Shown here one piece after another: positions 37,640-64,000 of a stretch of DNA of 64,000 nt. This DNA comes from Candidatus Heimdallarchaeum aukensis (lineage in GTDB: Archaea; Asgardarchaeota; Heimdallarchaeia; Heimdallarchaeales; Heimdallarchaeaceae), in the NCBI GenBank assembly GCA_021513695.1, contig CP084166.1, positions 512,001-576,000 on the forward strand, given 5' to 3'. The first letter of the stretch is position 1. Each line of letters begins with the position of its first letter. The notes under the pieces are model-generated. The model saw only the letters and a program-made list of their open reading frames with translations, did no database searches and was not told where the DNA came from. The translations under genes were made by a program, and so were the position numbers.

Positions 37640-40335
37640 TTTTTCTTCCCCTTTCCTTTACGTTCCCACTCACTGAACTGTTTGAGTAAATCATCAATAG
37701 CTGTAGTCATATCTTCAGAAACAAATTCGCCCTCAAATTGTAAGTCAAAGATTACTTCGTCTCTTTCGATTCTATTCGGTACATCCTTTGAATAGATGTA
37801 TAACCATAATTTCATAATCTCTATATCTTCAAAATCTAATAATGGAGAAAGCTTATTTAGACTTATTTTGTCGTAAACTAAACTAATTTTCTTAAGACGG
37901 TCAAGTATTTTATTATTAGTTTTTTTATCATTAATTATTTTTGTTAATTCAGACAATGTTCTATTATCTTCATCCAGTATATCTTTAACTATCGTTACTT
38001 TCTTTGTTGCAAAATCAAAAACTTCTGACCAATTATGTGCAAAAGATGGAAATAGTTTCTTAATTGTAGAAAAAGTATCACCTTTAAAAGAGATTATATA
38101 ATTTAAGAATGATAGCAATTTTTTATAACTAGCTATTATAGGCTTAAACTCTTGATCAGACCACTTTTCAATGAGTTTAGTTAACATTTCTTTTTTGAAA
38201 CTTTGTAAATTTGTAAAATTAATAAGATCAACTAAATAATTTATTTTACTGAGAACGGTATTATTTACGAAATAATCTAATTGATCATATGTTTTGTTTA
38301 ATTGTTCTCTTTCTATTTTTCTTAATTTTCTCTTATTTGAGCTGATAAAAAGGTAATCTTTAAGAAATAGTTTCAATTTTTCAAGATATTTTATAATCTC
38401 CTCAATTGAACTAATAAATAATAGTAAGGAAGAAGTGTTTATGAAAATCTTATCAAATTCTTCATTTAATTTAGTTTGCATATTTATTATCCCTGAGAAA
38501 TTTTCTCTTATCCTTAACCTTATTTTGTGTTCATAAACAAAAAAAAGAGGTAGGATAACAGATATAAGAAGTATAAGAGAAAAACATATTTTTTCAATTG
38601 GTTTAAGATAAATACTCTTTTTTAAAGGATTTTTACCATTTTCTATTTCCCAACCATCGAACAAACCGTCATCATCAGTATCAGAATCTAAAGGGTCAGT
38701 TCCAGCTAGATACTCTTCCAAATTAGTTAAACCATCTCCGTCCAGATCTTCTGATGAATCATATAACAAAGGGTTTAATGAATTACATAGTTCCCATCCA
38801 TCAGGTATGCCATCATCATCAGTATCGGGATCATTAGGGTCAGTTCCAGCTTGATATTCTTCTAAATTAGTTAAACTGTCTTTATCTTTGTCAACATAAG
38901 TGTCATTACTCAAAGGATTCAATAAAAATTCTACTTCCCAACTATCAGGTATGCCATCATCATCAGTATCAGAATCTAAAGGGTCAGTAGAATGCAAGGT
39001 CACTTCTTGAAAATCAGATAAGCCATCATCGTCAGTGTCTGAATCTAAAGGGTCAGTACTGTAAATAGTCACTTCTTGAAAATCAGAAAAGCCATCATCG
39101 TCAGTGTCTGAATCTAAAGGGTCAGTACTGTAAATAGTCACTTCATCTCCATCGTTCAAGCTATCATCGTCAGTGTCTGAATCTAAAGGGTCAGTACTGT
39201 AAATAGTCACTTCATCTCCATCGTTCAAGCTATCATCGTCAGTGTCAGAATCCAAAGGGTCAGTAGAATTCTGATACTCTTCTAAATTAGTTAATCCATC
39301 GCTATCTGGGTCTTCTGCAGAATCATCGATAGTAGTGTTTAAACCATTATTTTCTTCCCATTTGTCAAGCATATTATCTTGGTCTAAGTCTACATGCATG
39401 GGATAAGGATCAAAATTGTTAGCTGAACCATCTATAGGATATGGTCCTGTTCCACTCCAGTCATACCAATAGTTACCTGTTGTACCAGAATAAAATTTAT
39501 TGTATGTCCCATAATCACATGCTTGAGAAGAACCACCTAGATTATTTTTTATTAAGAAGTTTTTTACAAATATTTCATTTTTAGAGCTCTCATTTAGATA
39601 TATACCATAAGAATAACTATTTATTATAATATTGGAAGTAAAAGTATTTTTGTTAGAAACATCAAAGAGAATACCATAATTACTACTATTTACAACAGTA
39701 TTTGAAATAAAAGAATTGTTAGAACTACAAGAAAAAAATATGCCATCATAATAACTATTTGTTATAGTATTGGAAGTAAAAGTATTATTAAAACTAGAAT
39801 GAAGAGACATACCATAATTACTACATATCACAGAGTTGAAGGTAAAAGTATTATTGTTACTACAATAGAGGAAAATACCTACATTATAGCTATTTATAGT
39901 ATTATTAAATACAGTTATTGTTCCATCTGCAACAGAATAAATATAAATACCATAAAATGAACTTGAACCGCCCCCTTCAAGATAACAATCTCGAATAAGA
40001 ATATACTTTGTTGTCCCAGATATCTTTATACCATGAGATGTAGAGTCAGTTATACTATAGTTTTCAATGACATAAGGGTTATCTTTTGTCCCAGAACCAG
40101 GAAAAACAGTAAGATCATCATCAGACTCAATAAGAATAGGCGAATGAACTGTATAAACTTTTTTTACAGCTCTAGTTTCATTTGAATTTACACTAGACAT
40201 TGAATCTATTGTTATTTGATTAGATTGTAGAACCATATTTTCCTCTATTTGAGTCGAAAGGTAAACAAAGAAAACTGTAGTTGTTATTAATATTAGTACT
40301 AAACTTAATTGTATATAAGTTGCTATTCTTTTCAT
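37636..40335 (-). CDS. giant type-I membrane protein A: beta-helix (PbH1/NosD-like) + TSP3-type Ca-binding repeats + TM + cytoplasmic coiled coil + conserved C-terminal module
   Basis: Signal/anchor [26 protein letters not shown]. PbH1-like units ([19 protein letters not shown]...), [17 protein letters not shown], repeated [34 protein letters not shown], then about 330 aa Lys/Glu-rich helical sequence ending [21 protein letters not shown]. Confidence 0.8.
38948..39268 (-). repeat. tandem 69-bp (23-aa) coding repeats, TSP3-like
   Basis: Units [23 protein letters not shown] x2 are almost identical at the DNA level. They are followed by [46 protein letters not shown] and a partial fifth unit. 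Confidence 0.9.
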
Positions 40336-40617
40336 TTTTCAACCCTAGATACTCTAACTCTAAAGTAAATGCTTATTGAACATTTTCAAGATTTTAAATT
40401 TGAGTCACTTAATATTAAACAAAATACTAATTAACTTTTTCTACTAAACTTTGATTAATGTATAATCTGCACACATTAGGATGAAAGAAACTAAACTGTT
40501 TTTAGAGAAAAAATTCAAAATAAATGAACCACATTCAGTTATAACTAAAAAAATTCAGTGATTTTAATTAATATGTATGCTTCACAAAAACAACATGAGA
40601 TTTTCAACATTCTTTTT

Positions 40618-43600
40618 TCATTCTTTTTTACCTTTTCCTGTTTTTTCCCATTCACTAAATTTATCTATTAGTTCGTCAATAGCATGTGTTATCTCTTCAG
40701 TGATTTTTTCAACAATAATTAATTTGTCATCTTCAATTCGAATAGACAAAAAAGAGCCAAGCTCAACCAACCATAATTCAAGTTCATTAAGATCTTCAAA
40801 ACCTAATTTTTCTTGTAAAGTGAATAAAGGTATTTCAGAAGTAGTGGATAAAACCTTGAAGAATTCTTTAGCTCTTTCTATTTCAACATCTCGAGAATCA
40901 AAATAGTTTATTTTTTCTTCTATTTTTTCTTTTAATTCATTGTATTGTTCTATTCCATTGCTGGATAGCTCTCCTACTGTCTCTGTGTTCATAACCCTAC
41001 TATAATTTTCTTTCCAGTTAGCTAATTTTTCGTCAAACTCTTTAAAATATAACTCACTTTCTGTTATTTTTCCTTTTAGAGAATACACAAACAGATTATC
41101 TATTTCTTTTCTTAGCTCTTCTCCTTTTTTATCTAACAATATTAAAGGATAAAGATAAATAAGATCTCGAACTTCTTGTCTCTTATTTTCTATTTCTTGT
41201 AATTCCTCTAACAAGTCTTTTCTTTCTTCATTGGTTATTTGTTTAGAAAGAATTTCAAGTTTAGATTGAAAAAAATCACGAAAACCATCTGTTATCTCTA
41301 ATAACTTTTTTACTTTCTCGTAGTTAATATTAATGTTTAAGTCTTGTTGATTAATTATTTCTTTCTCTATTTCTAAAAATTCATCAAAGGTTTGTTTTTT
41401 GTGTATCTTAATTTGATTAATGTACGCATTTAATTCTTCTTTTGAAATTTGCTCATCAATATTTTTGATTTCATAGATCTTGGAAGAAAGCAAAGCATTT
41501 CGTATATCTATTTTTTCTATCTCTTTGGCATAGATTAAGTACTCATTACTTAATTCTTTGAATTCAAAAAAGACTTTAGCTATCCTTTTATTATAGTTAT
41601 CAAGATCAATTTTTTTATAATCGTTCTTTTGCACATAGCTATTGATCTGTTGCAAATCAGAGAGCAGTTGTTGCTTCTTTTCTAATATTTTATTCAACAA
41701 TAAGATATATTCATCTGTAATTTTTCTTTCTAATTCAGTCTTAATTTGTGATAACTTTTCTATAAAATCATTAATCTCCCTTTTCACTTTTTCAAATTCA
41801 ATAATATTTTTCTTTCCAATTATAACCTTAAATAAATTAAACTTTGAGCGATAAGAACCAATAATATTATCTAATTGTTTAGCACTATTAACCCATTCTT
41901 TAAAATTATCAGGTGAATATGATTGAAGAAGATATTCATCTATTTTTTCCTTAAATTTATTAAATTCCAAAAATTGTTTATTATATTCGTTCTTCAGTTG
42001 GATGATTTTTTCTCTCTGTTTTTTCTTAATTAATAAAATAGTTGTTGTTACGCTTCCTATTACCAAAAAACTCAATAGACAGGAAAGCACAATTTTAATT
42101 TTTTTTGCTCGAGGATTGCTTAATTTATTTAATGGATCACTTCCATAAATGATTATTTCATCATAATCATTAAATTTGTCATCATCTGTGTCATTTTTTG
42201 TTGGATCTGTGTGGTAAGCATATATTTCTTCATAATCAGATAAACCATCTCCATCAGTGTCAGAATCTATGGGATCAGTTAAGAAAACTATAACTTCTTG
42301 ATAATCAGTTAAACCGTCGCTATCTGAGTCTTTCTTATAAGGAAAAGAATGAAATATTTTAACTTCTTCATAATCACTTAATTTATCATCATCAAAATCC
42401 CCATCTCTTATACATCCTCCAAAAATAACTTCATCATAATCATTAAGACCATCACCATCAGTGTCATTGAAATTAGGATTAGCCATCCACTGATATTCTT
42501 CTAAATTTGATAAGCCATCTCCATCAGAATCGGCCTTGGAGTCATCTAAATTATAGACAATTTCCCAAGCATCTTCCATTCCATCAGAATCAGAATCATT
42601 CTCGACAGATGCAACTCGCCTAGGAAAGATATCTCCAATTTTATTTCCATAAATAGAATAAAAATTGGTAGTACCATCCCAATCTTCCCATAAATTGCCA
42701 ACTAGTAAAGTAGGAGAATACCAGTAAGTGTTAGTGCCATAATCTTCATTATTATCTTGAATCTTCAAAAAAGAATTATTGAAGACTATGTTATAATCTC
42801 CTCTTTCACCAATCCTTACTCCCCCTAAACCTGTTCCACAAAAAAGGTTATTATAAATCAAACTGTTACTTACTTCGAAACCATAACTAATAGCAAAATT
42901 AGTTGAATTATAGATATTGTTATTACTAATAACAACGTTATTACATCTTTCTAAATATAATCCATCTGATGTTGCTCCATTTATCAAATTATCAGAGATT
43001 ACAATTTCACTATTACCACTTGACCATAGGCATGAAGCCCAATCATTAGTTGTTTTTTCTAAATTATTGTAAAAGATTTTTATTTTTTTATTATCTCTAA
43101 CTCCAATGCTTCCTGCTCCATTAGTTATACATGTGTTTTTTATAATTGTAACATTTGAAGATTCAGAAACTAAAATACCAAAACCAGAGTTATTGGCAGA
43201 ATAATTATTTTTTATCAAGCTATCTCCAGATTGATGTACCAACACGCCATATTGATTATAAAGAAGAGTACAATTCTCAACTATTACACCACCTGCTCTA
43301 GTTTCAGAAGAAATCCCAACTTCATAACCTTGAATAAAACAATTCCTAATTATTACGAAAGAACTAACATAACGAATAACAATACCACAAGAATTTTCTA
43401 AATACTCAGTATCACCAGTTGAAACTTCATAGTTCTCAATTATATAAGGGTCTGCTTCAGTTCCTGAACCAGGAAACCCAAACTTTACAAAGTCTTCTTC
43501 ACTATTGATTTCTATCGGTGAATGAACAATATAACGTGTTTCTTTAGCATTGTTTCTTTCGGCAATTGCTTTTTGACAAGAACTACCATGGTTTATTTGT

Positions 43601-43875
43601 CTGTAGCTTGAAGTTAAATTATGCTTATCAATTGAGCGATAATTATCATATTCTTTTCCATTCTCTGTTTTATTGTTATTAAATTTAGAAGCCTTTTCAT
43701 CTACATAATTATCTATTAGGTGAAAAGTTGGAGTAAGAAAAAGAAAAATAACTAAAGAAACAATAATTCTTTTATAGTTTGGAAATATATTGTTTAATAT
43801 TTTCATTTCTAGAACAAGTATATACATTACAATAAAAAAATAAAAGTTTTTCTTCACTATTTCTTTTCTTTTCAT
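40618..43875 (-). CDS. giant type-I membrane protein B (same architecture as A, longer coiled coil)
   Basis: N-terminal anchor, beta-helix units (NNSGFGILVSESSNVTIIKNTCITN...), TSP3-like DSDGDGLSNLEE / DTDGDGLNDYDE / DSDTDGDGLSDYEE, TM IVLSCLLSFLVIGSVTTTILLI, and about 480 aa coiled coil ending AIDELIDKFSEWEKTGKGKKE. Confidence 0.8.
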   Translation of the reverse strand: MKRKEIVKKNFYFFIVMYILVLEMKILNNIFPNYKRIIVSLVIFLFLTPTFHLIDNYVDEKASKFNNNKTENGKEYDNYRSIDKHNLTSSYRQINHGSSCQKAIAERNNAKETRYIVHSPIEINSEEDFVKFGFPGSGTEADPYIIENYEVSTGDTEYLENSCGIVIRYVSSFVIIRNCFIQGYEVGISSETRAGGVIVENCTLLYNQYGVLVHQSGDSLIKNNYSANNSGFGILVSESSNVTIIKNTCITNGAGSIGVRDNKKIKIFYNNLEKTTNDWASCLWSSGNSEIVISDNLINGATSDGLYLERCNNVVISNNNIYNSTNFAISYGFEVSNSLIYNNLFCGTGLGGVRIGERGDYNIVFNNSFLKIQDNNEDYGTNTYWYSPTLLVGNLWEDWDGTTNFYSIYGNKIGDIFPRRVASVENDSDSDGMEDAWEIVYNLDDSKADSDGDGLSNLEEYQWMANPNFNDTDGDGLNDYDEVIFGGCIRDGDFDDDKLSDYEEVKIFHSFPYKKDSDSDGLTDYQEVIVFLTDPIDSDTDGDGLSDYEEIYAYHTDPTKNDTDDDKFNDYDEIIIYGSDPLNKLSNPRAKKIKIVLSCLLSFLVIGSVTTTILLIKKKQREKIIQLKNEYNKQFLEFNKFKEKIDEYLLQSYSPDNFKEWVNSAKQLDNIIGSYRSKFNLFKVIIGKKNIIEFEKVKREINDFIEKLSQIKTELERKITDEYILLLNKILEKKQQLLSDLQQINSYVQKNDYKKIDLDNYNKRIAKVFFEFKELSNEYLIYAKEIEKIDIRNALLSSKIYEIKNIDEQISKEELNAYINQIKIHKKQTFDEFLEIEKEIINQQDLNININYEKVKKLLEITDGFRDFFQSKLEILSKQITNEERKDLLEELQEIENKRQEVRDLIYLYPLILLDKKGEELRKEIDNLFVYSLKGKITESELYFKEFDEKLANWKENYSRVMNTETVGELSSNGIEQYNELKEKIEEKINYFDSRDVEIERAKEFFKVLSTTSEIPLFTLQEKLGFEDLNELELWLVELGSFLSIRIEDDKLIIVEKITEEITHAIDELIDKFSEWEKTGKGKKE

Positions 43876-44044
43876 TATTTCATTTTAAAGTAGTTTATTT
43901 ATCAAGTTCAACTTGCATAAAAGAATACAAATAAAACTAATACGAAAAATCGATGAAAAACATAAGATTCACAGAATGGATAAAATAAGACAGAAAAAAA
44001 ATATAATATTTCATATTTTTTTCTAAAAACTAAAATTAGTGAAA

Positions 44045-46010
44045 TTACTTCTTTTTCCCCTTTCCTGTACGCTCCCACTCACTAAACTGTTTAAGCAGAT
44101 CATCTATAGCTTCAGTCATATCTTCTGCCACGAACTCACCCTCAAGTTGTATATCGAACATTACTTCTTCTCCTTCTATCTGATTTGGTAAATCTTTAGA
44201 ATAAGCATATAACCATAGTTTCAAGACCTCTTTGTCTTCAAAGTCTAACAAAGGAGAAAGCTTGGTTAAACTTATTTTATTATAAACAGAACTAACTTTC
44301 TTAAGTCTTTCAAGTCTCATATTATTATTCTCACTATCATTAAATATTTTAGCTAACTCACCTAATAATTGTTCATTTTGTTCTAATAGTTCTTGGACAA
44401 TAACCAATTTTTCAGTAGCTAAATCTTTAATATCAGACCAGAAAGAGTCAGAAGAAGCAAATTTAGTAAAAGCTTTATGATCAATAAAAGCTACAATGTA
44501 ATTTAGGGTTGATAATATCTCTTCATAGCTGATAATTAGAGGTTTGAACTCCTTATCAGACCAATTATAGACAATGTTAGTTAACATTTCTTTAGTGTAA
44601 TCAAACAAATTTTTATAATCAATAAATTCAATTAATGAAACTACTTTATCATGAAGAGAGGAGCTGATAAAAGAGGTTATTTTTTCAAAAATCTTGTTAA
44701 ATTGTTCTTGTTTATTAGTTTTTAATCTTTTGCTGTTAGAATGAACAAAAATTAACTTTTCAAGAAGATTACCTAACTTTTCAAAATAGTCTTTTATCTC
44801 CTCTGCAGAAGAAACGAAAGAAATTAATGAAGAAATTTCTGTAAAAGTTTCCTTATACTTTCCATCTAATTCAGATTGTAAATGAATTACTTTTTCAAAT
44901 TTTTCCTTTACTTTTATTCGCATTATTAATACATGAATGGAGAATGTTACAAGAATAACAAATATAGGAAGTATAGCAAAATAACCTATTTTTTCTACTT
45001 GAGACAAATAAATATTCTTTTTTACAGGATTTTTTCCATTTTCTACTTCCCAACCGTCAAGCATACCATCTCCATCAGTGTCATTGTCCAAGGGGTCAGT
45101 AGAATAGATATGAACTTCTTGACCATCAGTCAGTCCATCTCCGTCACTGTCACTGTCCAAGGGGTCGGTATTGTAAGTATTTATCTCTTCATAGTCATCA
45201 AGTCCATCGTCGTCTGTGTCATTATCTATGGGGTTAGTACCTATTTGATACTCTTCTAAATTGGTCAAACCATCATTATCAAAATCCTCTGTAGAGTCAT
45301 CAATATTTGTGTCCAAGCCATTATCTTCTTCCCATTTGACGGGTATATTATCCTGGTCTAGATCCACATACATAGGATAAGGATCAAAGTTATTAGCGGA
45401 ACCATCTATTGGATATACTCCTGTTCCATTCCAGTCATACCAATAGTTCCCTGTTGACCCAGAATAAAACTTATTGTTTGTTCCCTCATCATACGCTTGT
45501 GAAGAACCACCTAAATTATTTTTAATTATGATGTTTTCCATAAAACTATTATTAGAGTATAACGGAGTCTTATACCATAAGAATTACTATTAGCTATAGT
45601 TTTAGAGCTAAAAATATTGTAAGAACTATTAAGAATATATACACCAATATAGCTACTGTTTGCTATGGTGTTAGAGGTAAAAATGTTATAAAAACTATAG
45701 CCTAGTTATATATTGTAGATACCACCATTTGTTATAATATTATTTATAAAAATATTATTAGAACTAGAACCGAGACTAATACAACACCAATCATTATTTA
45801 TAATTGTATTAAAAATAAAGTTGTTATTAGAACTATAACCTATTCGTATACCGTAATAACTAACAGTAATATTATTGAAAAAGAATGTGTTATTAGAGCT
45901 ATATTGAAGATTTATACCACTGGTAATTATATTTGTTATTTTATTAGAAATAAATGTATTATTAAAACTAGTTTCAATCCAAATACCATAATTCTTATTA
46001 TTTCTTTAGT
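44045..46010 (-). pseudogene. paralog C of the giant membrane protein family, 5' (beta-helix) part decayed
   Basis: ORF 44045-45541 starts inside the conserved [25 protein letters not shown] segment. DNA from 45542 to about 46010 still resembles the PbH1-repeat region of A (39600-39900) but contains stops and frameshifts, and no signal peptide remains. Confidence 0.75.
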
Positions 46011-47054: not shown

Positions 47055-48065
47055 TGTTCACTCAATAGACCTGGGTTACACTTTTGGGTACTAGAGAAAC
47101 ATAGGGGTGATTCATAAATTTTTCTCCAGGAGTAAGGAGGTTAAGAGACTGGTGAGGACGGCTAAAATTGTAGTATGAGCGGTAGAAGGAGAGGTCGGAG
47201 TTACAGTAGGTTAGTCCTAGTCTTTTCATCTCACGGATAATGGTTCCATGTAGTCTTTCTACTTTTCCACATGTTTCGGGGTGAAAAACTCTAGATCTTA
47301 TGTGCTTTATTCCCTCTGTTTGACACCAACGGGAGAAGGTACTTGTTCCCCCTCTAACGGAGTAGAATAGTGCTCCATTGTCTGTGAGAATAGACTCGGG
47401 GTATCCATATTTTTCTACTGCTTCTTCTAACAGACTTATTATCTGCTCTTTTTTCGGTGCGAAAGGGTGGAGTTTAGCTCCCAGGCAGAATCGTGAGTGG
47501 TCGTCTATTAGAGTTATGAGATAAAGGTGTTGTCCTTGTTCTTCTACCCAGAAAGGTCCTTTCACATCTATCTGCCAGAGTTCGTTAGGGGATGAGCGCT
47601 CAAAACTCTTGTATTGAGTAATGTTTCTCTTTTTTCTATTACTCCACAGAGGAAGACCTAACTCCCCTATTACTTTAACTACTGTGTTTCGCGATAGTGC
47701 TCTTCCTTCTTTCTTCAACAGATAAACTATCTTCTCCACGTTCATTCCTTGCTTTACTCTTAACTCCCTTATCCTCTCTCTTAACTCCTCATTCACTTTC
47801 CTGTGTATAGTTTTAGGTCTAGATGATCTATCCTTCCACCATTCTCCTTCAGGGTTCTCCTTAAACCTTTTCAACCACTTATATACAAACTTCCTACTCA
47901 CCATATACCTGTGAGCTACCTCTTTTATCTTCTCTCCTTCCAAAGCTTTTTTAACCACAATCTTTCTTAGTCTCTCTAGGTTACGTTTGGGTTTGTTCAT
48001 AATTCGTCACTTACCCTCGTAACCCACTTTCTATTTATTTGTTACCAACGTGGGTAGAGTAAACA
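47055..48065 (-). mobile_element. IS481/IS3-like (rve integrase-type) insertion sequence
   Basis: 1011 bp between the 16-bp direct repeats. Imperfect terminal repeats TGTTCACTC.../TGTTTACTC... One ORF. Visibly more G+C-rich than host DNA. Confidence 0.8.
47062..48000 (-). CDS. DDE transposase, rve (integrase core) type
   Basis: 312 aa with an N-terminal HTH (KEVAHRYMVSRKFVYKWLKRF). LWQIDVKGPF (D), ESILTDNGALF (D), CGKVERLHGTI (E), YNFSRPHQSL. Confidence 0.85.
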   Translation of the reverse strand: MNKPKRNLERLRKIVVKKALEGEKIKEVAHRYMVSRKFVYKWLKRFKENPEGEWWKDRSSRPKTIHRKVNEELRERIRELRVKQGMNVEKIVYLLKKEGRALSRNTVVKVIGELGLPLWSNRKKRNITQYKSFERSSPNELWQIDVKGPFWVEEQGQHLYLITLIDDHSRFCLGAKLHPFAPKKEQIISLLEEAVEKYGYPESILTDNGALFYSVRGGTSTFSRWCQTEGIKHIRSRVFHPETCGKVERLHGTIIREMKRLGLTYCNSDLSFYRSYYNFSRPHQSLNLLTPGEKFMNHPYVSLVPKSVTQVY

Positions 48066-50694: not shown

Positions 50695-51700
50695 AAGCAT
50701 GTCCAAAAATTCTTTTTCACCAACTATACAGTCCGAAGGAGTAAAAGGTAGTTGTAACAGAGGAGAGAACTATAAAGAGTAGAAAGAATGGTGGAGGGTA
50801 AGTGATCAAGGATTGGGGGAAGAGAGAGTTTGAGGAGACCAAAGACGTGTTCAATACTACTACGATACTCGGGGTGATGATTATGGCGATAGAGACCAGG
50901 GTAGAGACGATGAGCTTGAACTATTGATCCGAGAGGAGGAGAGGGATAACGAGCATTACTTTTTGGGGGAATAACAGGGAAAAAGGAATGTTGTCTAAGA
51001 AGACCGACGATATTTTCTGTCCAGTTGGCACAGTCTCCATAAAATCTCAAGAGCGGTCTCAAGAGTGCAGAAGGAAGTTTCTGCCATAGTAAACCGAAGA
51101 CTTTACTATCGTGAGTGTTACTAGCAGAATGAGCTAAAGAGATTATAGCTCTGGAGGGTAAACCAACTATAAGGTGTATCTTCCAGAAAAGTTTAGTTTG
51201 GAGGTTTTCTTTAGTCCTCCTCTTGCCCACTTGAGAAAACGCCAAACAGAAGCTTGACGGATTTTAAACCCTGAACTATCCACCGCCATAGCTTTCAACC
51301 CTTTTTTTTTCACTATTTCCCCACCTAAGTTTATTATCCACCGCTCTAAAATTTTACTTTCTGTCGCTCTCCACACTGCATGAAAAGTAGATTTGGAAGG
51401 AATCTTCTTCATCCACCCCTCTTCTATCAAAAAATCGCATAGAGACAACTTTTCCTCTAACTTCCTCCAAGCAATTCCTTCTATTCTAGCAATGATCGCT
51501 AAAGCCAGTATCACCCACCTTTCTGCTATTCTTTTTCTCCCTCTCTTACTTTCTCTCGGTTCCTCTTTCACCAGTTTCTTAAGGAAAGGTTCATTAATGA
51601 TTATGAATTCTCTTGCTTTGTGGAGGTCTATGATCTGAAAGAAACTCATACTTCCGACATAAACCCCCACATTAATAAAAATTAATTTTTGGACATGCTT
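50695..51700 (-). mobile_element. IS5-family-like insertion sequence, copy 2
   Basis: Perfect 17-bp terminal inverted repeats AAGCATGTCCAAAAATT (50695-50711) and AATTTTTGGACATGCTT (51684-51700). I found no flanking direct repeat. Confidence 0.85.
50724..51670 (-). CDS. IS5-type DDE transposase in two overlapping frames (orfA 51167-51670, orfB 50724-51245; a -1 shift is needed)
   Basis: orfA ends ...AVDSSGFKIRQASVWRFLKWARGGLKKTSKLNFSGRYTL*. orfB carries KIHLIVGLPSRA...NTHDS...YGDCANW...IEHVFGLLK to the natural end. It has fewer lesions than copy 1. Confidence 0.7.
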
Positions 51701-54283: not shown

Positions 54284-54640
54284 TTAGAGAAAAATTCGAT
54301 CGTAGATCTTCTCCGTACAGTAGTTTATTATGTTGGAAAAAATGATAAAAAAAGGTGCTGAAGTACTGTTAGAGAGAGTATGTATTTGTTCCATACTAAT
54401 AATTTTAATATCCAATTTATGCTGTAGAGAGAGATTACGAAACGAATCTTTAATATCAGTGTATATACGATCCTGAGAAGCTTTTTTCGAAATAACTAAC
54501 AGGTCAATATCGCTGGTTTCAGAAAAAGTTCCACTAGCATAGGATCCTCCCAGCAAAACGGAAACGATTTTTGAGCGAGAAGGAAGTTTTTCAATTTGAT
54601 TAGTAATTATTTTGATAAGTTCATCTTGTAGCTTTGCCAT
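54284..54640 (-). CDS. minimal nucleotidyltransferase (MNT-like)
   Basis: LLGGSYASGTFSETSDIDLLVI (GS...DxD signature); 118 aa. Confidence 0.65.
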   Translation of the reverse strand: MAKLQDELIKIITNQIEKLPSRSKIVSVLLGGSYASGTFSETSDIDLLVISKKASQDRIYTDIKDSFRNLSLQHKLDIKIISMEQIHTLSNSTSAPFFIIFSNIINYCTEKIYDRIFL

Positions 54641-56092: not shown

Positions 56093-56557
56093 TTACGATA
56101 AATTACATAAGTACTCTATTAAGTCTTCGACATCTATACATCCGTACCCTACTCTATAGGAATAATAAGTAGAATAAGTGCCTAGGTTATTTATTGGTTC
56201 TCCAACTTTATCCCAGTGTAGTTAATAATAGGAACCGATATTTCTACCACTAGGATCATTCTCGCATGAATAATCAAGACATGCTCCGAAATCTTGATAC
56301 GTTAAAGGATGAGCAGGATCAAGATGATAGTGCATACGTGAAGCTAAATAAGCAGTTACAGCTACTTGAGGTGCAGACATGCTGGTTCCAGTAGCAATAA
56401 TATTTTCCACCACTCCATCATTATCCAAATCGCTCTTCATTTCCACTTTAAATGATGGAGATACACAATCAACAGTCGCTTCACTCAACCCATGATCTTG
56501 CCAAAACAGACTACCAACATACGCACCATCAGTGTTTGGAGAATAGGTGAAAGACAT
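56093..56557 (-). pseudogene. subtilisin-like (S8) serine protease, C-terminal remnant
   Basis: Contains the catalytic-Ser motif ATGTSMSAPQVAVTAY but no Asp/His regions upstream. An in-frame TAA at 56222-56224 is followed by a still-open, family-like tail (...YRVGYGCIDVEDLIEYL). Confidence 0.65.
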
Positions 56558-56562
56558 TCTAC

Positions 56563-57276
56563 ATGTTTCATGACTTTCAAGTTCAAGATGGTATTAACCT
56601 TTACAATTCCAATGGTTTTATTATAAAAAATAATACCATTTCCTATGGCGGGTATGGACTATTTGTATCTGAATCTTCACACGGGGTATATACTAATAAT
56701 ACTTGTATAGAAAATAGCAAATATGGTGTTTATATAAAATATGGATACAACATTTCTATCAATGAAAACAACTGCAGCGCTAATGATCAAGGTATAAATC
56801 TTTACAACTCTTCTACAATTTATATCCACAATAATAGCATAAGTAAAAACACTATTGGACTGACTTTTGATCTCTCTAATCATTCAATCATCACTTTTAA
56901 TTCATTTGAGAAGAATGAACAATATGCAATAATTATGGATTCTTCATCTTCTTCTAATCTCATCCATCATAATACGTTTATTGACAACAACTTGCAAGGA
57001 ACATCTCAAGCTTGTGATAATGGTCATAATAATACTTGGTATGACCAATCAACAAAAACTGGTAATTATTGGTCTGATAGAAAAGGGATAGGAAAATATT
57101 ACATAGATGGTAATAGTAAATCGTATGATAAATACCCCCTAAAAAATCTCCCTCAACAATGTGCTGAAAAAACTTCTATTGATTTTCTCATCATTCTGAT
57201 CTCTTTTCTCTCTACAGTTATTTTGTCTTATGTCATAAGAAACAAGTATGCATTCAGACAATTACGATTTAGATAG
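56563..57276 (+). CDS. beta-helix (PbH1) protein fragment with C-terminal TM, N-terminally truncated relative of the giant family
   Basis: PbH1 units (NNTISYGGYGLFVSESSHGVYTNNTCIEN...), NNLQGTSQACDNGHNNTWYDQSTKTGNYWSD..GKYYIDG as in A and C, and TM FLIILISFLSTVILSYVI. No signal peptide; the frame opens only at 56551. Confidence 0.5.
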   Translation: MFHDFQVQDGINLYNSNGFIIKNNTISYGGYGLFVSESSHGVYTNNTCIENSKYGVYIKYGYNISINENNCSANDQGINLYNSSTIYIHNNSISKNTIGLTFDLSNHSIITFNSFEKNEQYAIIMDSSSSSNLIHHNTFIDNNLQGTSQACDNGHNNTWYDQSTKTGNYWSDRKGIGKYYIDGNSKSYDKYPLKNLPQQCAEKTSIDFLIILISFLSTVILSYVIRNKYAFRQLRFR

Positions 57277-57567: not shown

Positions 57568-57588
57568 ATGATTAAGAATATGATTAAG

Positions 57589-57840
57589 ATGGCGAAGAAT
57601 ATAGCAGTCTCTGATGAACTCTACAAATTGCTGAAACGGTTAAAACGTCCTGGTGAAAGTTTTACTGATGTGATTTTAAGATCAATAAAACATTCAACCT
57701 CTATAATGGATATTGCAGGTAAAAAAACAATACCCCTAGAAGAGTGGGAAAAACTCAAAAAATTATTTGAAGCGAAAGAAATAGAGGATTACAAGTGTAA
57801 AAGAGATTTGCTTGAGAAGGCTAATAATGTATCTTATTGA
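57589..57840 (+). CDS. vapB: VapB-type antitoxin (archaeal PF02697/DUF217-like pattern)
   Basis: MAKNIAVSDELYKLLKRLKRPGESFTDVILRSI matches the family pattern I recall (M.K.I.ISDE.Y..L..LK....SFS.VI..L). The start is placed at the third in-frame ATG. Confidence 0.65.
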   Translation: MAKNIAVSDELYKLLKRLKRPGESFTDVILRSIKHSTSIMDIAGKKTIPLEEWEKLKKLFEAKEIEDYKCKRDLLEKANNVSY

Positions 57841-57916: not shown

Positions 57917-58981
57917 TTAATTATCATAGAATCGTAAATAGAAATAACTGCTAGGATCACCATCTTCAAGTACAGGAACAGAAGTGTAGGCATCAACATA
58001 ATCTTTTATTGTGTCAAAAACATTTTCTAAGTCAAGGTCAAAATTTATCCATTCACAACTGGAGCTATCCCAGTATTGTTTTATAAAATAACCTGTAAGA
58101 GCTCCATGGTAGTTGCTTCCATCCGGCATATAATTAAAGAATTTAGCTTGAGTAGTTTCATTGTATCTACACGCTGCAATCATAAGTACATTCTCTGAGG
58201 CTTGAATAGACATTATTTCATTCATTCCTCCAGAAAAGCATGAATCAATAAAAACAAGTAATTTTGATTCATAAGTCGTAGTTGAATCAGAACAAGCAAA
58301 TTTATCAAAAAGTATCTTTAAATTATAGTCATAAAGAAATTCATCTATTCCATAAGCTTGAACACTATGCTCTTCTTCATTATAACTATATCCATGCCCC
58401 GAGTAAATAAAGAATATTAAGTCATTTGGATCAGAATTTTCAACAACATTAGCTGTAACATCGTAAATATTTTGTAGTGTTGCTTGATGATAATCAAAGT
58501 TAAAGATACCACCTCCAGGACCTGATGTGTCAGGTAAATCAAAAAGACTTTCTCGATTTACAGATTCTTCGTGGCCAAGTAGGTGAACATTCATAGAAAA
58601 AGAAACAATATCATAAGTTTCTGGTTGTTGATCAAATAATTCAAAAAGAGCTGAAGCCCACATACACCATAAAATTGCATCTTCCCACGCACCAGCACAA
58701 TATTGTCCAGTTTGATCTTGACCAATACCGATAATAATAAACTCTGCCTTAATTTTATTGTCAGTGCCACTAGGATAGTCTATTACTGGAATAGTTGGTC
58801 CATTAACTCCTCCCCCATCACCGGTACCAGGATCAAGTTCAAAACCTTTTGTCAATAAGACTTCTTGAAAGAGTGTATTATTTATACTAGAACATAGTAA
58901 TGTCGATAAAATAAATAACGTAATAAAAATATTTTTATTAATTTTATTCACAGACCTATTAAAAAAATAACAACATCCCAT
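57917..58981 (-). CDS. extracytoplasmic caspase-like (clan CD) cysteine peptidase
   Basis: N-terminal anchor IFITLFILSTLLCSS. His/Cys dyad contexts LIFFIYSGHGYS and LLVFIDSCFSGGM. Confidence 0.65.
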   Translation of the reverse strand: MGCCYFFNRSVNKINKNIFITLFILSTLLCSSINNTLFQEVLLTKGFELDPGTGDGGGVNGPTIPVIDYPSGTDNKIKAEFIIIGIGQDQTGQYCAGAWEDAILWCMWASALFELFDQQPETYDIVSFSMNVHLLGHEESVNRESLFDLPDTSGPGGGIFNFDYHQATLQNIYDVTANVVENSDPNDLIFFIYSGHGYSYNEEEHSVQAYGIDEFLYDYNLKILFDKFACSDSTTTYESKLLVFIDSCFSGGMNEIMSIQASENVLMIAACRYNETTQAKFFNYMPDGSNYHGALTGYFIKQYWDSSSCEWINFDLDLENVFDTIKDYVDAYTSVPVLEDGDPSSYFYLRFYDN

Positions 58982-59042
58982 ATTTAAATATTTCGGATAA
59001 TAGGAAACAATATTTATTAATGTCTATAAAGCACATACCATA

Positions 59043-61805
59043 ATGTTGATAGTAAAACAGTATAGAACCAAAATAGTTTTTATTATTGTAGTCTATTCTT
59101 TATTTATTAGTTCAAGCGTTAATTTATCTCAAGAAAAGATATATGCCTATGAAGTTCAAAAAGATCATAATAATCTAAAAAAAATTGAACAGAATAGCAG
59201 TTTTTCTATTTATAATAGTTCTAAATACAGAGTATTATGGAAATTAACCATTCCATCACCATATTATGGAGATATTTCATTTATTGATTTAACAGATGAT
59301 AATAAACTAGATTTACTAATTGGAAAGCCTGATGAAGGATTATATGCTATAAATGGATTTAATGGTTCTATTATTTGGACAAAAAATTACTCTTCCAATA
59401 GTTGGTGGTTTCCTTATGTCAAGTGTTATGGAGCAAATTTTTTGGACATTGACTCTGATAATGAACTTGAGATCATTTTTAGTGTTGCTAATAATCGTAC
59501 TATTAATGCTTTAGAAAAAAATTCTACAGATATTTGGTCATATTATTGTAATGATGGTAATGGTAATACTGTTTTGGTTGATACAAACAATGATGGTTAT
59601 AAAGAACTTCTTTTTGGTTTTTCTGGAGGAATAAAAACTCTTTCTCCTTTTAACAGAACTGTTCTGTGGAGCTATGAAAACGATCTTCTTTCTTCTGGAG
59701 AATCATATCTGACTATAGCAGATTTAAACAACGATGGATTTGATGATGTAATTGATGCTTCATCTTTTGGTAATCTGATTGCAATTAATGGAAAAACACA
59801 TACACTTCTATGGGAAAGAACTTTACCTAAAAAAAATAAAGATAAAGAATTAAGACATCTTTCTAGGCCTGTTGCTGGAGATATGGACGGAGATGGTCAA
59901 TTAGAAGTGTTTGTAAGTGCAGGAAAAGAATATAAGAATATTTTTTTCACACTTGATGGAAAAACAGGAAAAACAATTTGGAAGGTTGAAGGAGAAAAAT
60001 TTAGTCGTGACACAGTTCTTGGAGATTTAAATGGAGATAATATTTTAGATATCGTTTCAACAACTACTGATGGTAAAATAATTGTGCTTGATGGTTTAAA
60101 AGGAAAAACTTTATGGACATTTCAATTTGGCAAATCATTGAACAATCCAGATAGCTATGGATTACCTCTTTCTTGCCCTGTTTTAGGTGACCTTAATAAT
60201 GATAACAGATTAGATGTTTTAATAGGCTCATGTGATGGTAAATATTATATCCTTGACGGATTAACAGGTAACCCTTTGTTTATTTTTGACAATCCTTCAA
60301 TATCTGAAGGACATAGAAAAACAGTAGATATTATTGATACAGGTGCTATCGTAGATTTAGACGGAGACGGAGAAAATGAAGTTGTTCTTGTCTGGACAGG
60401 TTTAGGTGTCTACGCTTACGATTTTGAGGAGGAATTAGCAGGAAAAAGAATTTTCTGGGGGACAAAGAGAGGAAATTCTTTGCAATGGGGAAATGCTTTA
60501 GCATTAGATCAAGATAATGACAGATTATCAGATTACAGTGAAAAATTATTTGGGACAGATAAAACGAATCCTGATACTGATGGAGATGGATTACCTGATG
60601 GTTATGAACTCAGTTACTTAAATACATCACCAACTCTATATGATACTGATAATAATGGAATTAGCGATGGTGAAGAAGACTTTGATGGTGACGGATTATT
60701 AAATGAACAAGAATTTAGACGCTTTACTGACCCATTTATATTTGATTCTGATTTTGATGGAATAAGAGATAAGCTTGACCTTTTTCCTTATTTAAATGAC
60801 TATATCGTTTATTCTAAAATTCTTGGAATTGTTTCTTTGTTTAGTTTTTCATTGTATAGTTACAAAAACTACAGGAAAAAAGGTTTAGTTTATCGAATTA
60901 TAAACTACGCTTACCTTAAAACAAAAAGGTTCCTTAAAAAATGTAAAAACTTTTTTAAAAAAACATCAGACGAAGTATTCTACTTTCTTCTCGTCAATAA
61001 AGGGTTAACAATAGCAAAAACCATTCTTGCCTTTATTCTTTCTAATATACTAATTATTCCTTTTTTCATTCCAGCTTGGAGAGAAAGAATGTATCTTAAG
61101 AATACTGAAGCACATATCACAATTTCTGATACAGGATTCCATAATATGGGATACATTGATCATTCGGGAGAATGTGTAGGAAAATACTGGCTTAGAACAG
61201 AAGATGGAGTATTCTATGCAATAAGTGGATATAAAGGAAACTTACCATACGGAGATTTCTATATTCGTGGTGAAGGATTTACTTATGATTCTGGAGATTT
61301 GGGGTTGAACTATCTTTTTGAAATGTCTCCTGAAGATGTGAAAGAAATAAAAGCAGCTCTTAGAAGACCTTGGTTATTGTTACTAGGATTAGTAGCTGTA
61401 AGCTTAGTGTTTTACTTAACATTCTACATTCTACAAAAGCTCATAAGCAAAATAACAGAACAGTCGTTTAAAGGAACACCATTTGAAGAGATGATTGCCA
61501 GTTTCCTCGAAGAAGTAAAGAAAATTACTTTTAGGAAACAGGAAAGTTTTGCAATGCAAGGATTATGGTTTGATCTAATAGAATACTACTGGGACAAAGG
61601 GTTAAGTAAATACGTCGACATTGATAAAAAACAATTAGTTCAGAGTAAAGGAGCACAAAAATATTTCATCAAAGACGATATTCAAGTTAAAGATGTTATT
61701 ATATACCTTGTTCTGTCTGATCCAGAAGCTCAAAAGACTAAGTTACCTATCATCATCAGGACCAATAGATTAAAAAAATCTAAACTGGAAAAAATAGATA
61801 ATTAA
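59043..61805 (+). CDS. integrin-alpha-like FG-GAP/beta-propeller protein with TSP3-type repeats, TM segments and a cytoplasmic domain
   Basis: Signal peptide. About 8 repeats with DxDxDG-type loops (DLNNDGFDDV, GDMDGDGQLEV, GDLNGDNILDI, GDLNNDNRLDV, VDLDGDGENEV), each followed by G..(I/L)W. Then DQDNDRLSDY, NPDTDGDGLPDGYE, YDTDNNGISDGEEDFDGDGLLNEQE. Hydrophobic helices after residue 590. Confidence 0.75.
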   Translation: MLIVKQYRTKIVFIIVVYSLFISSSVNLSQEKIYAYEVQKDHNNLKKIEQNSSFSIYNSSKYRVLWKLTIPSPYYGDISFIDLTDDNKLDLLIGKPDEGLYAINGFNGSIIWTKNYSSNSWWFPYVKCYGANFLDIDSDNELEIIFSVANNRTINALEKNSTDIWSYYCNDGNGNTVLVDTNNDGYKELLFGFSGGIKTLSPFNRTVLWSYENDLLSSGESYLTIADLNNDGFDDVIDASSFGNLIAINGKTHTLLWERTLPKKNKDKELRHLSRPVAGDMDGDGQLEVFVSAGKEYKNIFFTLDGKTGKTIWKVEGEKFSRDTVLGDLNGDNILDIVSTTTDGKIIVLDGLKGKTLWTFQFGKSLNNPDSYGLPLSCPVLGDLNNDNRLDVLIGSCDGKYYILDGLTGNPLFIFDNPSISEGHRKTVDIIDTGAIVDLDGDGENEVVLVWTGLGVYAYDFEEELAGKRIFWGTKRGNSLQWGNALALDQDNDRLSDYSEKLFGTDKTNPDTDGDGLPDGYELSYLNTSPTLYDTDNNGISDGEEDFDGDGLLNEQEFRRFTDPFIFDSDFDGIRDKLDLFPYLNDYIVYSKILGIVSLFSFSLYSYKNYRKKGLVYRIINYAYLKTKRFLKKCKNFFKKTSDEVFYFLLVNKGLTIAKTILAFILSNILIIPFFIPAWRERMYLKNTEAHITISDTGFHNMGYIDHSGECVGKYWLRTEDGVFYAISGYKGNLPYGDFYIRGEGFTYDSGDLGLNYLFEMSPEDVKEIKAALRRPWLLLLGLVAVSLVFYLTFYILQKLISKITEQSFKGTPFEEMIASFLEEVKKITFRKQESFAMQGLWFDLIEYYWDKGLSKYVDIDKKQLVQSKGAQKYFIKDDIQVKDVIIYLVLSDPEAQKTKLPIIIRTNRLKKSKLEKIDN

Positions 61806-61816
61806 TAAAGCATTTT

Positions 61817-62299
61817 TTATTTTGTTCGTAGTAATCTTGAAAGATGATAACCACAGCTTACAGGTAGTATTGGATGCTTTTTTCCGCTGATTGATATTGA
61901 AATATTTTTTATTATTTTTATTTCAGAATAATGACGCCAACCTTTACTTAAAACAAGAGGGTAGTATGATTTCTTAATATTTTTTGAACAATATTCTTCA
62001 ACTATAGTTTTTACTACTTTTGAACCATTTTCTAGTTTTTCAATGACTTCTTTAGCTTTTGCACTTTTGTTTTTCAATTCAGCAATTATAATATACAAAC
62101 AATGATTAGTCTCAACAATAATAATACAATCTGATGATTTTTCCTTAATTAACGAGTCCCCATCTAATATTATATATTCTTTATCAATATCAATTTTTAG
62201 TTCACAGTTTCTTTCATAACATTTCTTTCTTGAATAGTCCGAATAAAATTGGCTAACAGTTTGAAAAAAAGTCATAGAAAATCCCATTGAAATAATCAT
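61817..62299 (-). CDS. hypothetical protein, possible PD-(D/E)xK nuclease fold
   Basis: 160 aa. SSDCIIIVETNHCLYIIIAELKNKS offers a D ... E-x-K arrangement on alternating strands. This is weak, from motif only. Confidence 0.3.
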   Translation of the reverse strand: MIISMGFSMTFFQTVSQFYSDYSRKKCYERNCELKIDIDKEYIILDGDSLIKEKSSDCIIIVETNHCLYIIIAELKNKSAKAKEVIEKLENGSKVVKTIVEEYCSKNIKKSYYPLVLSKGWRHYSEIKIIKNISISISGKKHPILPVSCGYHLSRLLRTK

Positions 62300-62967
62300 T
62301 CTAGTTCTTTTTTTAGTTTAAAAATTTCTTCATGGTATCTCTTTTCCTTTTCTTACTGATATTAATAGAGTTATTATAAGCTATAAACAAAACTGTTATA
62401 ATAAAAGATTATTAGAAATTATAAAATTAATGTGAGTACAAAGTTGTTTTCATTATCAAAACATACTCGAAAAACGCTTAAATTTGACACCTATTACAAT
62501 TATTAAAACAATACCAAAAAATGAGATTGTCCCAATCACATACGAAGGATACATTTATTCCCATATAGAATGACTGCTTTCCCCATAGATCCAATTTTAA
62601 ACACTACTTTTATTATCGTTTAAACTTGGGATATTCTGATTCTAGTGCATATTCTTATGCAAGATATAAAGCATAGTACTAACATAAAGACCAAATTTCT
62701 CTGAAAAATGATTAATGCAAATATATTTGGTTGCTATATTAGTAAAATAACAATACCACAAAGATGTTTTTTAATTAAAGATTGAAGAAACAGGTAGAGT
62801 ACAATGAATCTTGTACTAAATAAGGTCAAATTAACACCTGTTATTCATCCTTTACAAAAAGGACAATCCTGTTCGTTAACAAATCTATAACTATATGTCA
62901 AAAATGATATATAGATGTTTAAAATAATGAATATTTGATAGAAAAGTATGTATTTTGTTGATAAAAA

Positions 62968-64000
62968 ATGAGCAATAATAAACATACTACAATCGCATTA
63001 ATAATAGTCATATTGTCATTAGCTCTTGTTTTTATTAAACCAACAGGAGCTGGTTGGGTAGAATGGGAAGGGAAAGTGTATAATGAATGGAATAATGGAG
63101 TAAGTGGAGCAATAGTAAAACTAAAACAGAATAATGTTGTTGTTAAAACAACAACCACAGATAGTAATGGGGAATATTCTCTCATATACTATACTTCTAG
63201 CTATGCTACATACAAAATTACAGTGACTAAGGAGGATTATAATAGTCAAACAAAGACTGTTCCCAAGACTTCCCTTGGAGAACCCTGGGTTGTAGATTTT
63301 AATATTCGCTATGTTATGAAATATGCTGTGATCGTGGGAATAGAAGATTATGCTTATCTTAATGATTTACAGTATACAGAAAATGATGCAGATGCTTGGT
63401 ACGACTTCTTATGTGATACATCTTTAGATTTCGATGAAGTGGATCTATATAAAGGTAGTAATGCATATGAATCCGCCATCAAAAACGCTTTAGAAAATAT
63501 GGTAAATATAGCTGATAAAGGTGACATTATTGCATTTATTTTCTCAGGGCATGGTTATAAAAAAAGTAGTACTGAACATGCCCTTTCTATGTGGGATGCT
63601 GATGGTAATGGTAACACAGGTTACTTATATGATTCAGAACTAGCAACTATTTTAACTAGTTCAGAAGCTGAAAGAATATTTCTATTTTTTGACTGTTGTT
63701 ACAGCTATGGAATGCAAGAGGAGTTGGCAGAGATAGGAAGCAAAGATCATATCCTTCTTACTAGTTCTTGTGATAAAAATGAAATTTCCTATTATGACAA
63801 AGCAAATGAAAAGAGTTGTTGGACGCAAAGTTTTTTAGTAGAATCATGGATTAATAATAATGAGCCAGAAGATCCTGTAATAGATGTTTTCAACGATGCA
63901 ATAATTTATTTCAGAGCCCATATAACTAATGGAGATGATTATTACTCAACGGATCAGAATCCGCAATTGTGGAACCCTTATGGAAACAATTTTCGATTAA
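62968..64000 (+). CDS. secreted protein with CarboxypepD_reg-like domain and caspase-like (clan CD) peptidase domain, 3'-partial
   Basis: Not in the ORF track because it runs off the window. The ATG at 62968 gives MSNNKHTTIALIIVILSLALVFIKPTGA (signal). GKVYNEWNNGVSGAIVKLKQNNVVVKTTTTDSNGEYSL, then YAVIVGIEDY...IIAFIFSGHGYK...IFLFFDCCYSYGM. Confidence 0.7.
   Translation, partial: MSNNKHTTIALIIVILSLALVFIKPTGAGWVEWEGKVYNEWNNGVSGAIVKLKQNNVVVKTTTTDSNGEYSLIYYTSSYATYKITVTKEDYNSQTKTVPKTSLGEPWVVDFNIRYVMKYAVIVGIEDYAYLNDLQYTENDADAWYDFLCDTSLDFDEVDLYKGSNAYESAIKNALENMVNIADKGDIIAFIFSGHGYKKSSTEHALSMWDADGNGNTGYLYDSELATILTSSEAERIFLFFDCCYSYGMQEELAEIGSKDHILLTSSCDKNEISYYDKANEKSCWTQSFLVESWINNNEPEDPVIDVFNDAIIYFRAHITNGDDYYSTDQNPQLWNPYGNNFRL

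Follow-up and report, generated by a model that had tools for sequence, protein, structure and literature searches.

Two caspase-like peptidase genes and a large repeat-protein gene lie together near the end of a 64,000-nucleotide stretch of the genome of Candidatus Heimdallarchaeum aukensis (contig CP084166.1, positions 512,001 to 576,000; hereafter the window), an Asgard archaeon. Do they form one extracellular cluster, and is that cluster built, as an initial annotation proposed, from the domains of eukaryotic cell-surface biology? The genes concerned are gene A, which encodes a C14 peptidase of 354 amino acids (aa) on the minus strand (57917-58981); gene B, which encodes a membrane protein of 920 aa on the plus strand (59043-61805); and gene C, which encodes a peptidase of 352 aa on the plus strand, with 344 codons inside the window (62968-64000). 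The answer that we favour, with moderate confidence, is that two independent surface modules lie here, each made up of two genes, one for an exported C14 peptidase and one for a large, membrane-anchored repeat protein as its partner. The first module would consist of A and B, transcribed divergently from the spacer between them, and the second of C and a NosD-like beta-helix gene downstream of it.

Two conserved gene pairs

A and B lie head to head across an intergenic region of 61 bp (58982-59042). Besides the window, the pair occurs in a Heimdallarchaeaceae metagenome-assembled genome (L002), in the closed PR6 genome of H. endolithica (L005), in two Joint Genome Institute (JGI) contigs from a third species (L003 and L004), and in one short JGI contig (L021). 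It is kept in every Heimdallarchaeum-clade locus recovered, despite differing flanks. For example, A and B of L002 are each 61% identical to their counterparts in the window, and of the 10 genes flanking the L002 pair, none is matched in the window. In L002 and L005 the pair lies between glycine-cleavage genes and an RtcB gene that contains an intein, and the flanks of L003 differ again. The spacers between A and B measure approximately 60-90 bp across loci, and alignment of three intergenic regions revealed a conserved AT-rich element, ATTTATTAA[TC]GT, situated approximately 25-35 nucleotides (nt) from both start codons. This element may represent a shared TATA or archaeal promoter region. 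As a side observation, the RtcB RNA ligase gene beside the pair in the H. endolithica lineage (L002, 11469-14444; L005, 1566-4541) carries a Pfam Intein_splicing domain between two RtcB halves.

The other A-B loci lack gene C, which has a partner of its own. C runs past the window end, as first noted, and its missing 3' end of 8 codons and a stop was recovered from a public contig whose gene B is identical and which agrees with C over the whole in-window part. On that contig, outside the window, a NosD-like beta-helix gene begins 15 bp after the C stop codon. A NosD/beta-helix gene follows the C-family gene on the same strand in 5/5 archaeal contexts, with gaps of 15-73 bp, and this pairing holds at identities as low as 36% and across five distinct neighbourhoods; it is missing in one bacterial-looking context. 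The beta-helix partners (450-555 aa) start with a signal peptide and end with a D-x-YPLS-x-PP motif, a transmembrane helix and a basic tail. In L015 (4127-7973, also seen in L016), an ornithine carbamoyltransferase gene (PF00185) occurs as two minus-strand fragments, with a C14 and beta-helix pair and a few small open reading frames (ORFs) between them. This arrangement hints at a cassette inserted into the carbamoyltransferase gene and at a pair that moves as a unit. Because C does not accompany A and B at their other loci and has its own beta-helix partner, the single three-gene cluster that had been proposed resolves into two adjacent two-gene modules, the second of which is cut by the window end.

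A functional link between the two kinds of protein is suggested by gene fusions. The bacterial proteins P0063 and P0034 are single secreted chains in which a clan-CD peptidase of family C25 is joined to a CarboxypepD_reg or immunoglobulin (Ig)-like domain and to an FG-GAP propeller; this is the same domain set that A, C and B carry between them. The fusions differ from the archaeal modules in being single polypeptides, often cargo of the type IX secretion system (T9SS), whereas here the genes are separate and archaeal, the peptidases belong to C14, and the partner is membrane-anchored. These C25/CarboxypepD_reg/FG-GAP fusions therefore favour a surface protease module with a partner that docks a substrate or a surface. 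In such a module, A and C would be exported and stay membrane-bound, held either by a signal that is not cleaved or by a lipobox-like Cys. Their partner, B in one module and the beta-helix protein in the other, would serve as a non-catalytic, calcium-stabilised docking subunit, which would bind a surface or protein substrate and present it to the peptidase. This scheme would resemble the gingipain-type clan-CD peptidases, which carry adhesin or FG-GAP domains in one polypeptide. Occupancy or cleavage may also be reported inside the cell through the extra membrane helices and the conserved cytoplasmic tail of B.

The C14 peptidases A and C

Both peptidases pass the threshold of the Pfam family Peptidase_C14 and retain the catalytic His/Cys dyad on alignment, which bears out their first description as clan-CD enzymes with His and Cys motif contexts. 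A consists of a signal or anchor helix (aa 1-36; 58874-58981, minus strand; placed by hydrophobicity and charge), a Gly-rich linker and a caspase-fold core (aa 76-354; 57920-58756, minus strand) delimited by Pfam, by alignment with Arabidopsis metacaspase-4 (AtMC4) and by a structural model. A scores 39.8 bits against Peptidase_C14 (E 5.2e-10; cut-off 21.4) and has a second match (E 2.5e-07) in Peptidase_C13, the family of legumain and GPI8. Its catalytic residues, for which the codons were verified, are His196 in the motif YSGHG (58394-58396, minus strand) and Cys248 in the motif DSCFSG (58238-58240, minus strand). They correspond position by position to His86 and Cys139 in AtMC4 (PDB 6w8s), and a C139A mutant entry of AtMC4 confirms the identity of the catalytic Cys. 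When the AlphaFold model of A was searched with Foldseek, the top 24/24 matches were clan-CD proteins (metacaspases, GSU0716, caspases and legumain), and PIGK appeared at rank 39.

The A family is highly divergent and narrowly distributed. The protein has an insert of approximately 45 aa after helix 1, and its best E-value against PDB sequences is 1e-4. Two relatives were found among 5.8 billion proteins searched; a scan of GTDB genomes added H. endolithica only, and a scan of metagenomes added one short contig. Homologues are thus confined to the Heimdallarchaeum clade, and the family occurs solely where close B orthologues occur. In the orthologues of A, the signal helix ends in a lipobox-like Cys (ILGSC, IISSC), and the corresponding residues of A itself are LLCSS. 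The peptidase may be lipid-anchored, a feature that would be remarkable in an Asgard archaeon.

C combines an N-terminal CarboxypepD_reg beta-sandwich (aa 35-111; 63070-63300, plus strand; 35.7 bits against a cut-off of 32.3), as first described, with a C14 domain (aa 118-297; 63319-63858, plus strand; E 2.7e-15, 57.1 bits, cut-off 21.4). Its dyad, His195 (63550-63552, plus strand) and Cys244 (63697-63699, plus strand), aligns with the motifs of metacaspases and GSU0716. The C family has approximately 19 members, mostly from Heimdallarchaeaceae. A profile built from 17 of these sequences matches the yeast metacaspase Yca1 (E 4e-13), C. glabrata MCA1, AtMC4, AtMC9 and T. brucei MCA2, and its CxND, SGHG and DSC motifs line up with theirs. 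Among the 17 members the Cys is invariant and the His is present in 16, whereas both are invariant in the A family. The PDB matches of the C-family profile span the p20 region only (profile positions 110-269 of 368). The C-terminal 90-100 aa are kept within both the A and C families and have no match to p10. A separate observation concerns P0099 and P0100 (L010; L011, 6001-7614), distant relatives of C in which TSP_3 repeats of the eukaryote type (PF02412) are fused directly to the C14 domain. Their context is bacterial-looking, with an extracytoplasmic function (ECF) sigma factor gene and LpxB adjoining, and they constitute another link of TSP3 repeats with secreted caspase-like enzymes.

The joint alignment of trimmed A- and C-family sequences points to a shared substrate preference. 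Four positions, Asp101, His196, Asp246 and Cys248 in A numbering, are invariant. The acidic pair of the S1 pocket corresponds to Asp101 and Asp246 in A, the latter two residues upstream of Cys248, and to Asp140 and Asp242 in C. The equivalents of the four invariant positions in TbMC2 are Asp95, His147, Asp211 and Cys213, the two Asp residues accommodating basic P1 residues (PMC6426788). With the dyad and two acidic S1 residues in place, A and C therefore bear the hallmarks of Arg/Lys-specific peptidases of the metacaspase or orthocaspase type, and both are predicted to cleave after Arg or Lys. The N-termini of A, B and C also share a layout, in which charged residues precede a hydrophobic helix 13-20 residues long. 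This layout is consistent with the secretion signals that had been noted in A and C and suggests that all three proteins are exported.

A and C resemble metacaspases and orthocaspases (MEROPS C14, clan CD; for example, Yca1, AtMC4, TbMCA2 and GSU0716) in their caspase-haemoglobinase p20 core, their SGHG and D-x-C motifs and their two acidic S1 residues. Archaeal orthocaspases with N-terminal Ig-like domains are known, and the Ig-like beta-sandwich of C resembles those that carry Big_7 (PMC6426788). In contrast to the usual members of the group, A and C have export signals, which predict extracellular action, and each is genomically coupled to a surface protein. A further differs from known metacaspases in its divergence and its restriction to one archaeal clade, and neither A nor C matched a p10 domain or a prodomain.

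The membrane protein B

B was described at first as an integrin-alpha-like protein with approximately eight FG-GAP-like calcium-loop repeats, TSP3-type repeats, membrane helices and a C-terminal region of approximately 300 aa. Each structural element was recovered, and the comparison with integrin alpha was not upheld. The N-terminal hydrophobic helix (aa 8-30) is followed by a propeller (aa 60-478; 59220-60476, plus strand). FG-GAP_3 (E 8.8e-14), PQQ_2 (1.3e-10) and FG-GAP (9.1e-08) all match B in Pfam, with FG-GAP and FG-GAP_3 exceeding their cut-offs. A search for the pattern D-x-[DN]-x-D-[GN]-x-x-[DE] located eight loops at a spacing of 45-55 residues: seven canonical ones at aa 135, 180, 227, 280, 328, 383 and 438, and a variant, DLTDDNKLD, at aa 82. 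The loops are of the calcium-binding type, as judged from their residues. In the AlphaFold model, computed from a 40-sequence alignment, the propeller comprises eight blades of four strands, 32 in all, with an additional closing strand, at a predicted local distance difference test (pLDDT) score of approximately 90. The segment WGTxRGNSLQ after the propeller was considered as an Arg cleavage site and rejected, as it contains the closing strand.

Foldseek ranked BamB first among PDB matches of this model (E 4e-19, TM-score 0.74), along with Bap1, ITFG2 in KICSTOR, pyrroloquinoline quinone (PQQ) dehydrogenases and YxaL. The model, the structural matches and the loops together therefore identify B as an eight-bladed propeller of the BamB/PQQ type that carries FG-GAP-type calcium loops. 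The presence of a calcium loop in every blade agrees with the first description, whereas the fold itself is of the BamB/PQQ type. B is not BamB. It scores 22.9 bits against the BamB equivalog TIGR03300 (cut-off 285) and 18.1 against PRK11138 (cut-off 423), and BamB, a lipoprotein of the Gram-negative outer membrane, is without the DxDxDG calcium loops that B has. The archaeal host has no outer membrane. Among solved structures with an adhesive role, the nearest analogue is Bap1, a biofilm matrix adhesin of V. cholerae (paralogue RbmC; PDB 6mlt). Bap1 is secreted and soluble and contains an inserted beta-prism lectin domain, whereas B has no insert and adds a TSP3 stalk, three transmembrane helices, a tail and a partner peptidase.

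The stalk (aa 479-581; 60477-60785, plus strand) holds five motifs that resemble the calcium-binding thrombospondin type-3 (TSP3) repeat, D-x-D-x-D-G-x-x-D, probably of the bacterial type (aa 489-580; found by pattern); its score against TSP3_bac (PF18884), 18.1 bits, is below the 25-bit cut-off. Sub-threshold NCBIfam matches to the TSP3 proteins CglD, MtsC and MtsD were also recorded. Translated searches (tblastn) confirmed the proposed link between these repeats and a family of large proteins encoded at 37-46 kb of the window, with 33-43% identity and E-values down to 5e-9.

The 336 aa after the repeats form a membrane module (aa 582-805; 60786-61457, plus strand) and a C-terminal tail (aa 806-920; 61458-61802, plus strand). 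In the membrane module, the first transmembrane helix (582-609) is followed by a basic loop (608-647), the second helix (646-688), a segment of approximately 74 aa (689-762) and the third helix (763-805). The loop, at net +11, is assigned by its charge to the cytoplasmic side and the acidic segment 689-762 to the outside; on this charge-based topology, the tail would be cytoplasmic. All nine N-x-S/T sequons of B fall within aa 27-527. Beyond the propeller, the AlphaFold model is moderately confident for the TSP3 region, predicts long helices at 582-609, 615-638, 644-688 and 763-805, renders aa 689-762 as beta-rich but poorly predicted, and gives a helical C-terminal domain. An HMMER search of 1.84 billion representatives with the C-terminal 336 aa returned no homologue outside the clade, one fragment from within it and one marginal match, and no Pfam family matched at E<=1. 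The marginal match (aa 705-753, E 6.6e-4) falls on a module that is repeated within a bacterial T9SS adhesin; naming a domain after it was rejected, the match being too weak. Compared with the 61%-identical orthologue, the transmembrane helices of B are 79-89% identical, the tail 76.5% and the propeller 56%. The membrane and cytoplasmic module is thus more conserved (76-89%) than the ectodomain (56%), so it is no passive remnant. Short members of the B family (P0003, P0004, P0007, P0008, P0011 and P0013) end after one transmembrane helix and a short basic tail. Beside one distant B homologue (L012), a divergent gene of 386 aa was considered as an analogue of A and rejected, as it has no caspase similarity.

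Competing explanations, surroundings and significance

Several observations weigh against a pair of peptidase-docking modules. The coupling of peptidase and partner is inferred from conserved adjacency and the bacterial C25/FG-GAP fusions, and the peptidase of those fusions belongs to C25 and not to C14. The A-B pairing is known from three to four species of one genus-level clade, and among distant B homologues (24-30% identity) 0/4 contexts have a caspase gene as neighbour. In L003 and L004, A carries a 1-nt frameshift (L003, approximately 6885; L004, approximately 2914) and B is a short form of 617 aa. In the closed PR6 genome, B (L005, 5131-7930) is frameshifted inside its third transmembrane helix. 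One partner is therefore disrupted in two species, and the module could be dispensable, decaying or affected by assembly errors, possibly shared ones. The secretion signals of A, B and C were judged by eye from hydrophobicity and charge. Lastly, the AlphaFold model of A is weak, with a mean pLDDT of 56 (approximately 75 in the core) and Foldseek TM-scores of 0.27-0.42. As a separate observation, the 1-nt deletion in A of L003 and L004 is identical in the two metagenome assemblies.

A possible but doubtful alternative is that the partner is the substrate, with the peptidase acting as a dedicated maturase, sheddase or sortase-like transpeptidase that cuts its neighbour near the membrane and so activates, releases or re-anchors the ectodomain. 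Clan-CD enzymes offer precedents in the glycosylphosphatidylinositol (GPI) transamidase PIGK, the T9SS sortase PorU and the self-processing of gingipains, and the pairing is strict and one-to-one. The match of A to Peptidase_C13 and the resemblance of its model to legumain and PIGK point in the same direction, but the legumain and PIGK matches are weaker than those to metacaspases. The C-terminal layout shared by the beta-helix partners and the short B forms, in which a motif (D-x-YPLS-x-PP or TSP3) is followed by a linker of approximately 10 aa, a transmembrane helix and a basic tail, is that of a sorting signal. However, the D-x-YPL motif is an ordinary end of NosD-like domains, B of the window has three transmembrane helices and a conserved tail, unlike a removable sorting signal, and a conserved Arg/Lys cleavage motif was not identified.

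It is unlikely that the genes are simply independent neighbours in a variable island of surface-protein genes and mobile elements, their adjacency reflecting a short evolutionary distance. Transposases and gene fragments do occur in the window, as does a family of surface proteins of the beta-helix/TSP3 kind, and both the restriction of A-B conservation to one genus-level clade and the broken partners of two lineages would be expected of such an island. Nevertheless, the A-B pair and its spacer of approximately 60-90 bp persist where the flanks have been wholly replaced at 57-63% protein identity, the C and beta-helix pair is retained across its five neighbourhoods, and fusions of clan-CD peptidases with FG-GAP domains exist.

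Two further explanations assign a signalling role to B. In the first, which we consider improbable, A would clip or gate the calcium-dependent ectodomain of B, and the unusually conserved orphan membrane and cytoplasmic module would relay the event inward, making B a protease-regulated transmembrane adhesion receptor. If true, B and A would constitute a prokaryotic device for outside-in signalling in the archaeal lineage at the root of the eukaryotes, and the C and beta-helix pair would be a second example. The second, which is very improbable, would make B a true forerunner of the integrin-type receptors of eukaryotes, signalling to the Asgard cytoskeleton with A as a regulatory protease. B does share with integrin alpha, ITFG1, ITFG2 and FAM234 proteins the FG-GAP-type calcium-loop repeats and the order of propeller, stalk, membrane anchor and conserved cytoplasmic tail. 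The host is an Asgard archaeon, and there are weak Pfam matches to the propellers of FAM234A/B and ITFG2 in addition to the structural match to ITFG2 in KICSTOR. However, integrin alpha has seven blades, thigh and calf domains, a single transmembrane helix and a beta subunit, whereas B has eight blades, a TSP3 stalk, three transmembrane helices and a helical tail of 115 aa. B also has no thigh or calf domains and no GFFKR-type tail, and neither the window nor the orthologous loci contain a VWA-type (beta-subunit) gene near it. Integrin alpha is absent from the top structural matches, the nearest sequence relatives are archaeal and bacterial FG-GAP proteins, and the cytoplasmic tail has no homologue, eukaryotes included, among the 1.84 billion representatives.

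An intracellular caspase-type conflict or programmed-death system, with B as membrane sensor and A or C as effector proteases, is hardly credible, because the PADLOC "caspase" matches (A, 1.9e-09; C, 2.8e-14) and a sub-threshold NCBIfam match to caspase_w_EACC1 are generic and reflect the shared caspase fold alone, while A, B and C all have predicted N-terminal export signals, B has no PADLOC match, and no NTPase, effector-associated or death-like adaptor domain is present.

The preferred reading of two docking modules thus keeps part of the extracellular adhesion-plus-protease description of the initial annotation. With signal-like segments in all three proteins, an extracellular protease acting with a binding protein is a reasonable interpretation, but no specific tie to the adhesion machinery of eukaryotes emerged. 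The eukaryotic cell-surface flavour likewise did not hold, as the TSP3 repeats of B appear to be of the bacterial type, the peptidases are prokaryotic and orthocaspase-like, and all homologues recovered are archaeal or bacterial.

The three genes belong to a closed genome of 3.08 Mb; G+C content in the window is approximately 30%. Scans of the whole window for tRNA genes and Rfam families gave zero matches. No terminal repeats bound the genes, a repeat search of 53-64 kb having given short chance matches only. Between B and C lies an unrelated ORF of 160 aa (61817-62299, minus strand), separated from C by a spacer of 668 bp and without a counterpart in any orthologous A-B locus. It matches PADLOC PDC-M47B (6.5e-5) and Pfam Profilin (0.033, probably by chance) weakly, and by eye it shows a D...ELK pattern that recalls PD-(D/E)xK nucleases. 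At lower coordinates than A, a VapB-type antitoxin gene (57568-57840, plus strand) has no adjoining toxin ORF of >=80 aa, and what are apparently two gene remnants stand back to back. The first (56222-56557, minus strand) is an ORF of 111 aa with a subtilisin-like Ser motif, GTSMSAPQVA, and no Pfam match. The second (56563-57276, plus strand) encodes a NosD/beta-helix protein that lacks its N-terminal part and ends in a transmembrane helix and a basic tail; it is a paralogue of the beta-helix gene downstream of C. At still lower coordinates, a small nucleotidyltransferase gene (NTP_transf_2; 54284-54640, minus strand) is followed by an ORF of 107 aa, as in MNT/HEPN-type pairs. Transposase genes a few kb upstream, an rve integrase with helix-turn-helix domains (47062-48000, minus strand) and a DDE_Tnp_1 gene (50724-51245, minus strand), fit a rearrangement-prone region. 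The large proteins at 37-46 kb are three paralogues of 899, 1085 and 498 aa (37636-45541, minus strand) with NosD/beta-helix domains and bacterial TSP3 repeats (TSP3_bac). They have the C-terminal motif ...FSEWE[RK][KT]GKGKK in common, and no caspase gene adjoins them.

Parts of this picture have been recorded before. B is 100% identical to an NCBI entry from Candidatus H. aukensis. NCBI already labels the products as "caspase family protein" and "FG-GAP-like repeat-containing protein", and a list of Asgard signature proteins reportedly includes FG-GAP "integrin repeat" proteins (Liu et al., 2021, as cited in PMC9258230). Caspase homologues are rare in archaea: a 2019 census of p20 sequences from prokaryotes counted 93 archaeal ones among 11,208 (PMC6426788). 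The genome paper of the organism does not mention caspase, integrin or FG-GAP genes, and full-text literature on Asgard archaea together with integrin and FG-GAP, or with metacaspases, yielded nothing relevant. No published description was found of the clade-restricted A family, of the A-B and C/beta-helix pairings or of the orphan membrane and cytoplasmic module of B.

The findings guard against over-reading of domain names, since the presence of FG-GAP, TSP3 and caspase domains in an Asgard archaeon does not by itself mark eukaryotic signature proteins. Caspase homologues are usually discussed as intracellular proteases of death and stress. The Asgard lineage described here, one close to eukaryotes, encodes at least two metacaspase-like enzymes that are predicted to be exported, each paired with a surface protein of its own. 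Should that coupling prove genuine, it would point to a role for the caspase fold in surface proteolysis or surface-protein processing in archaea, and it would offer a simple two-gene system for probing extracellular metacaspase function.

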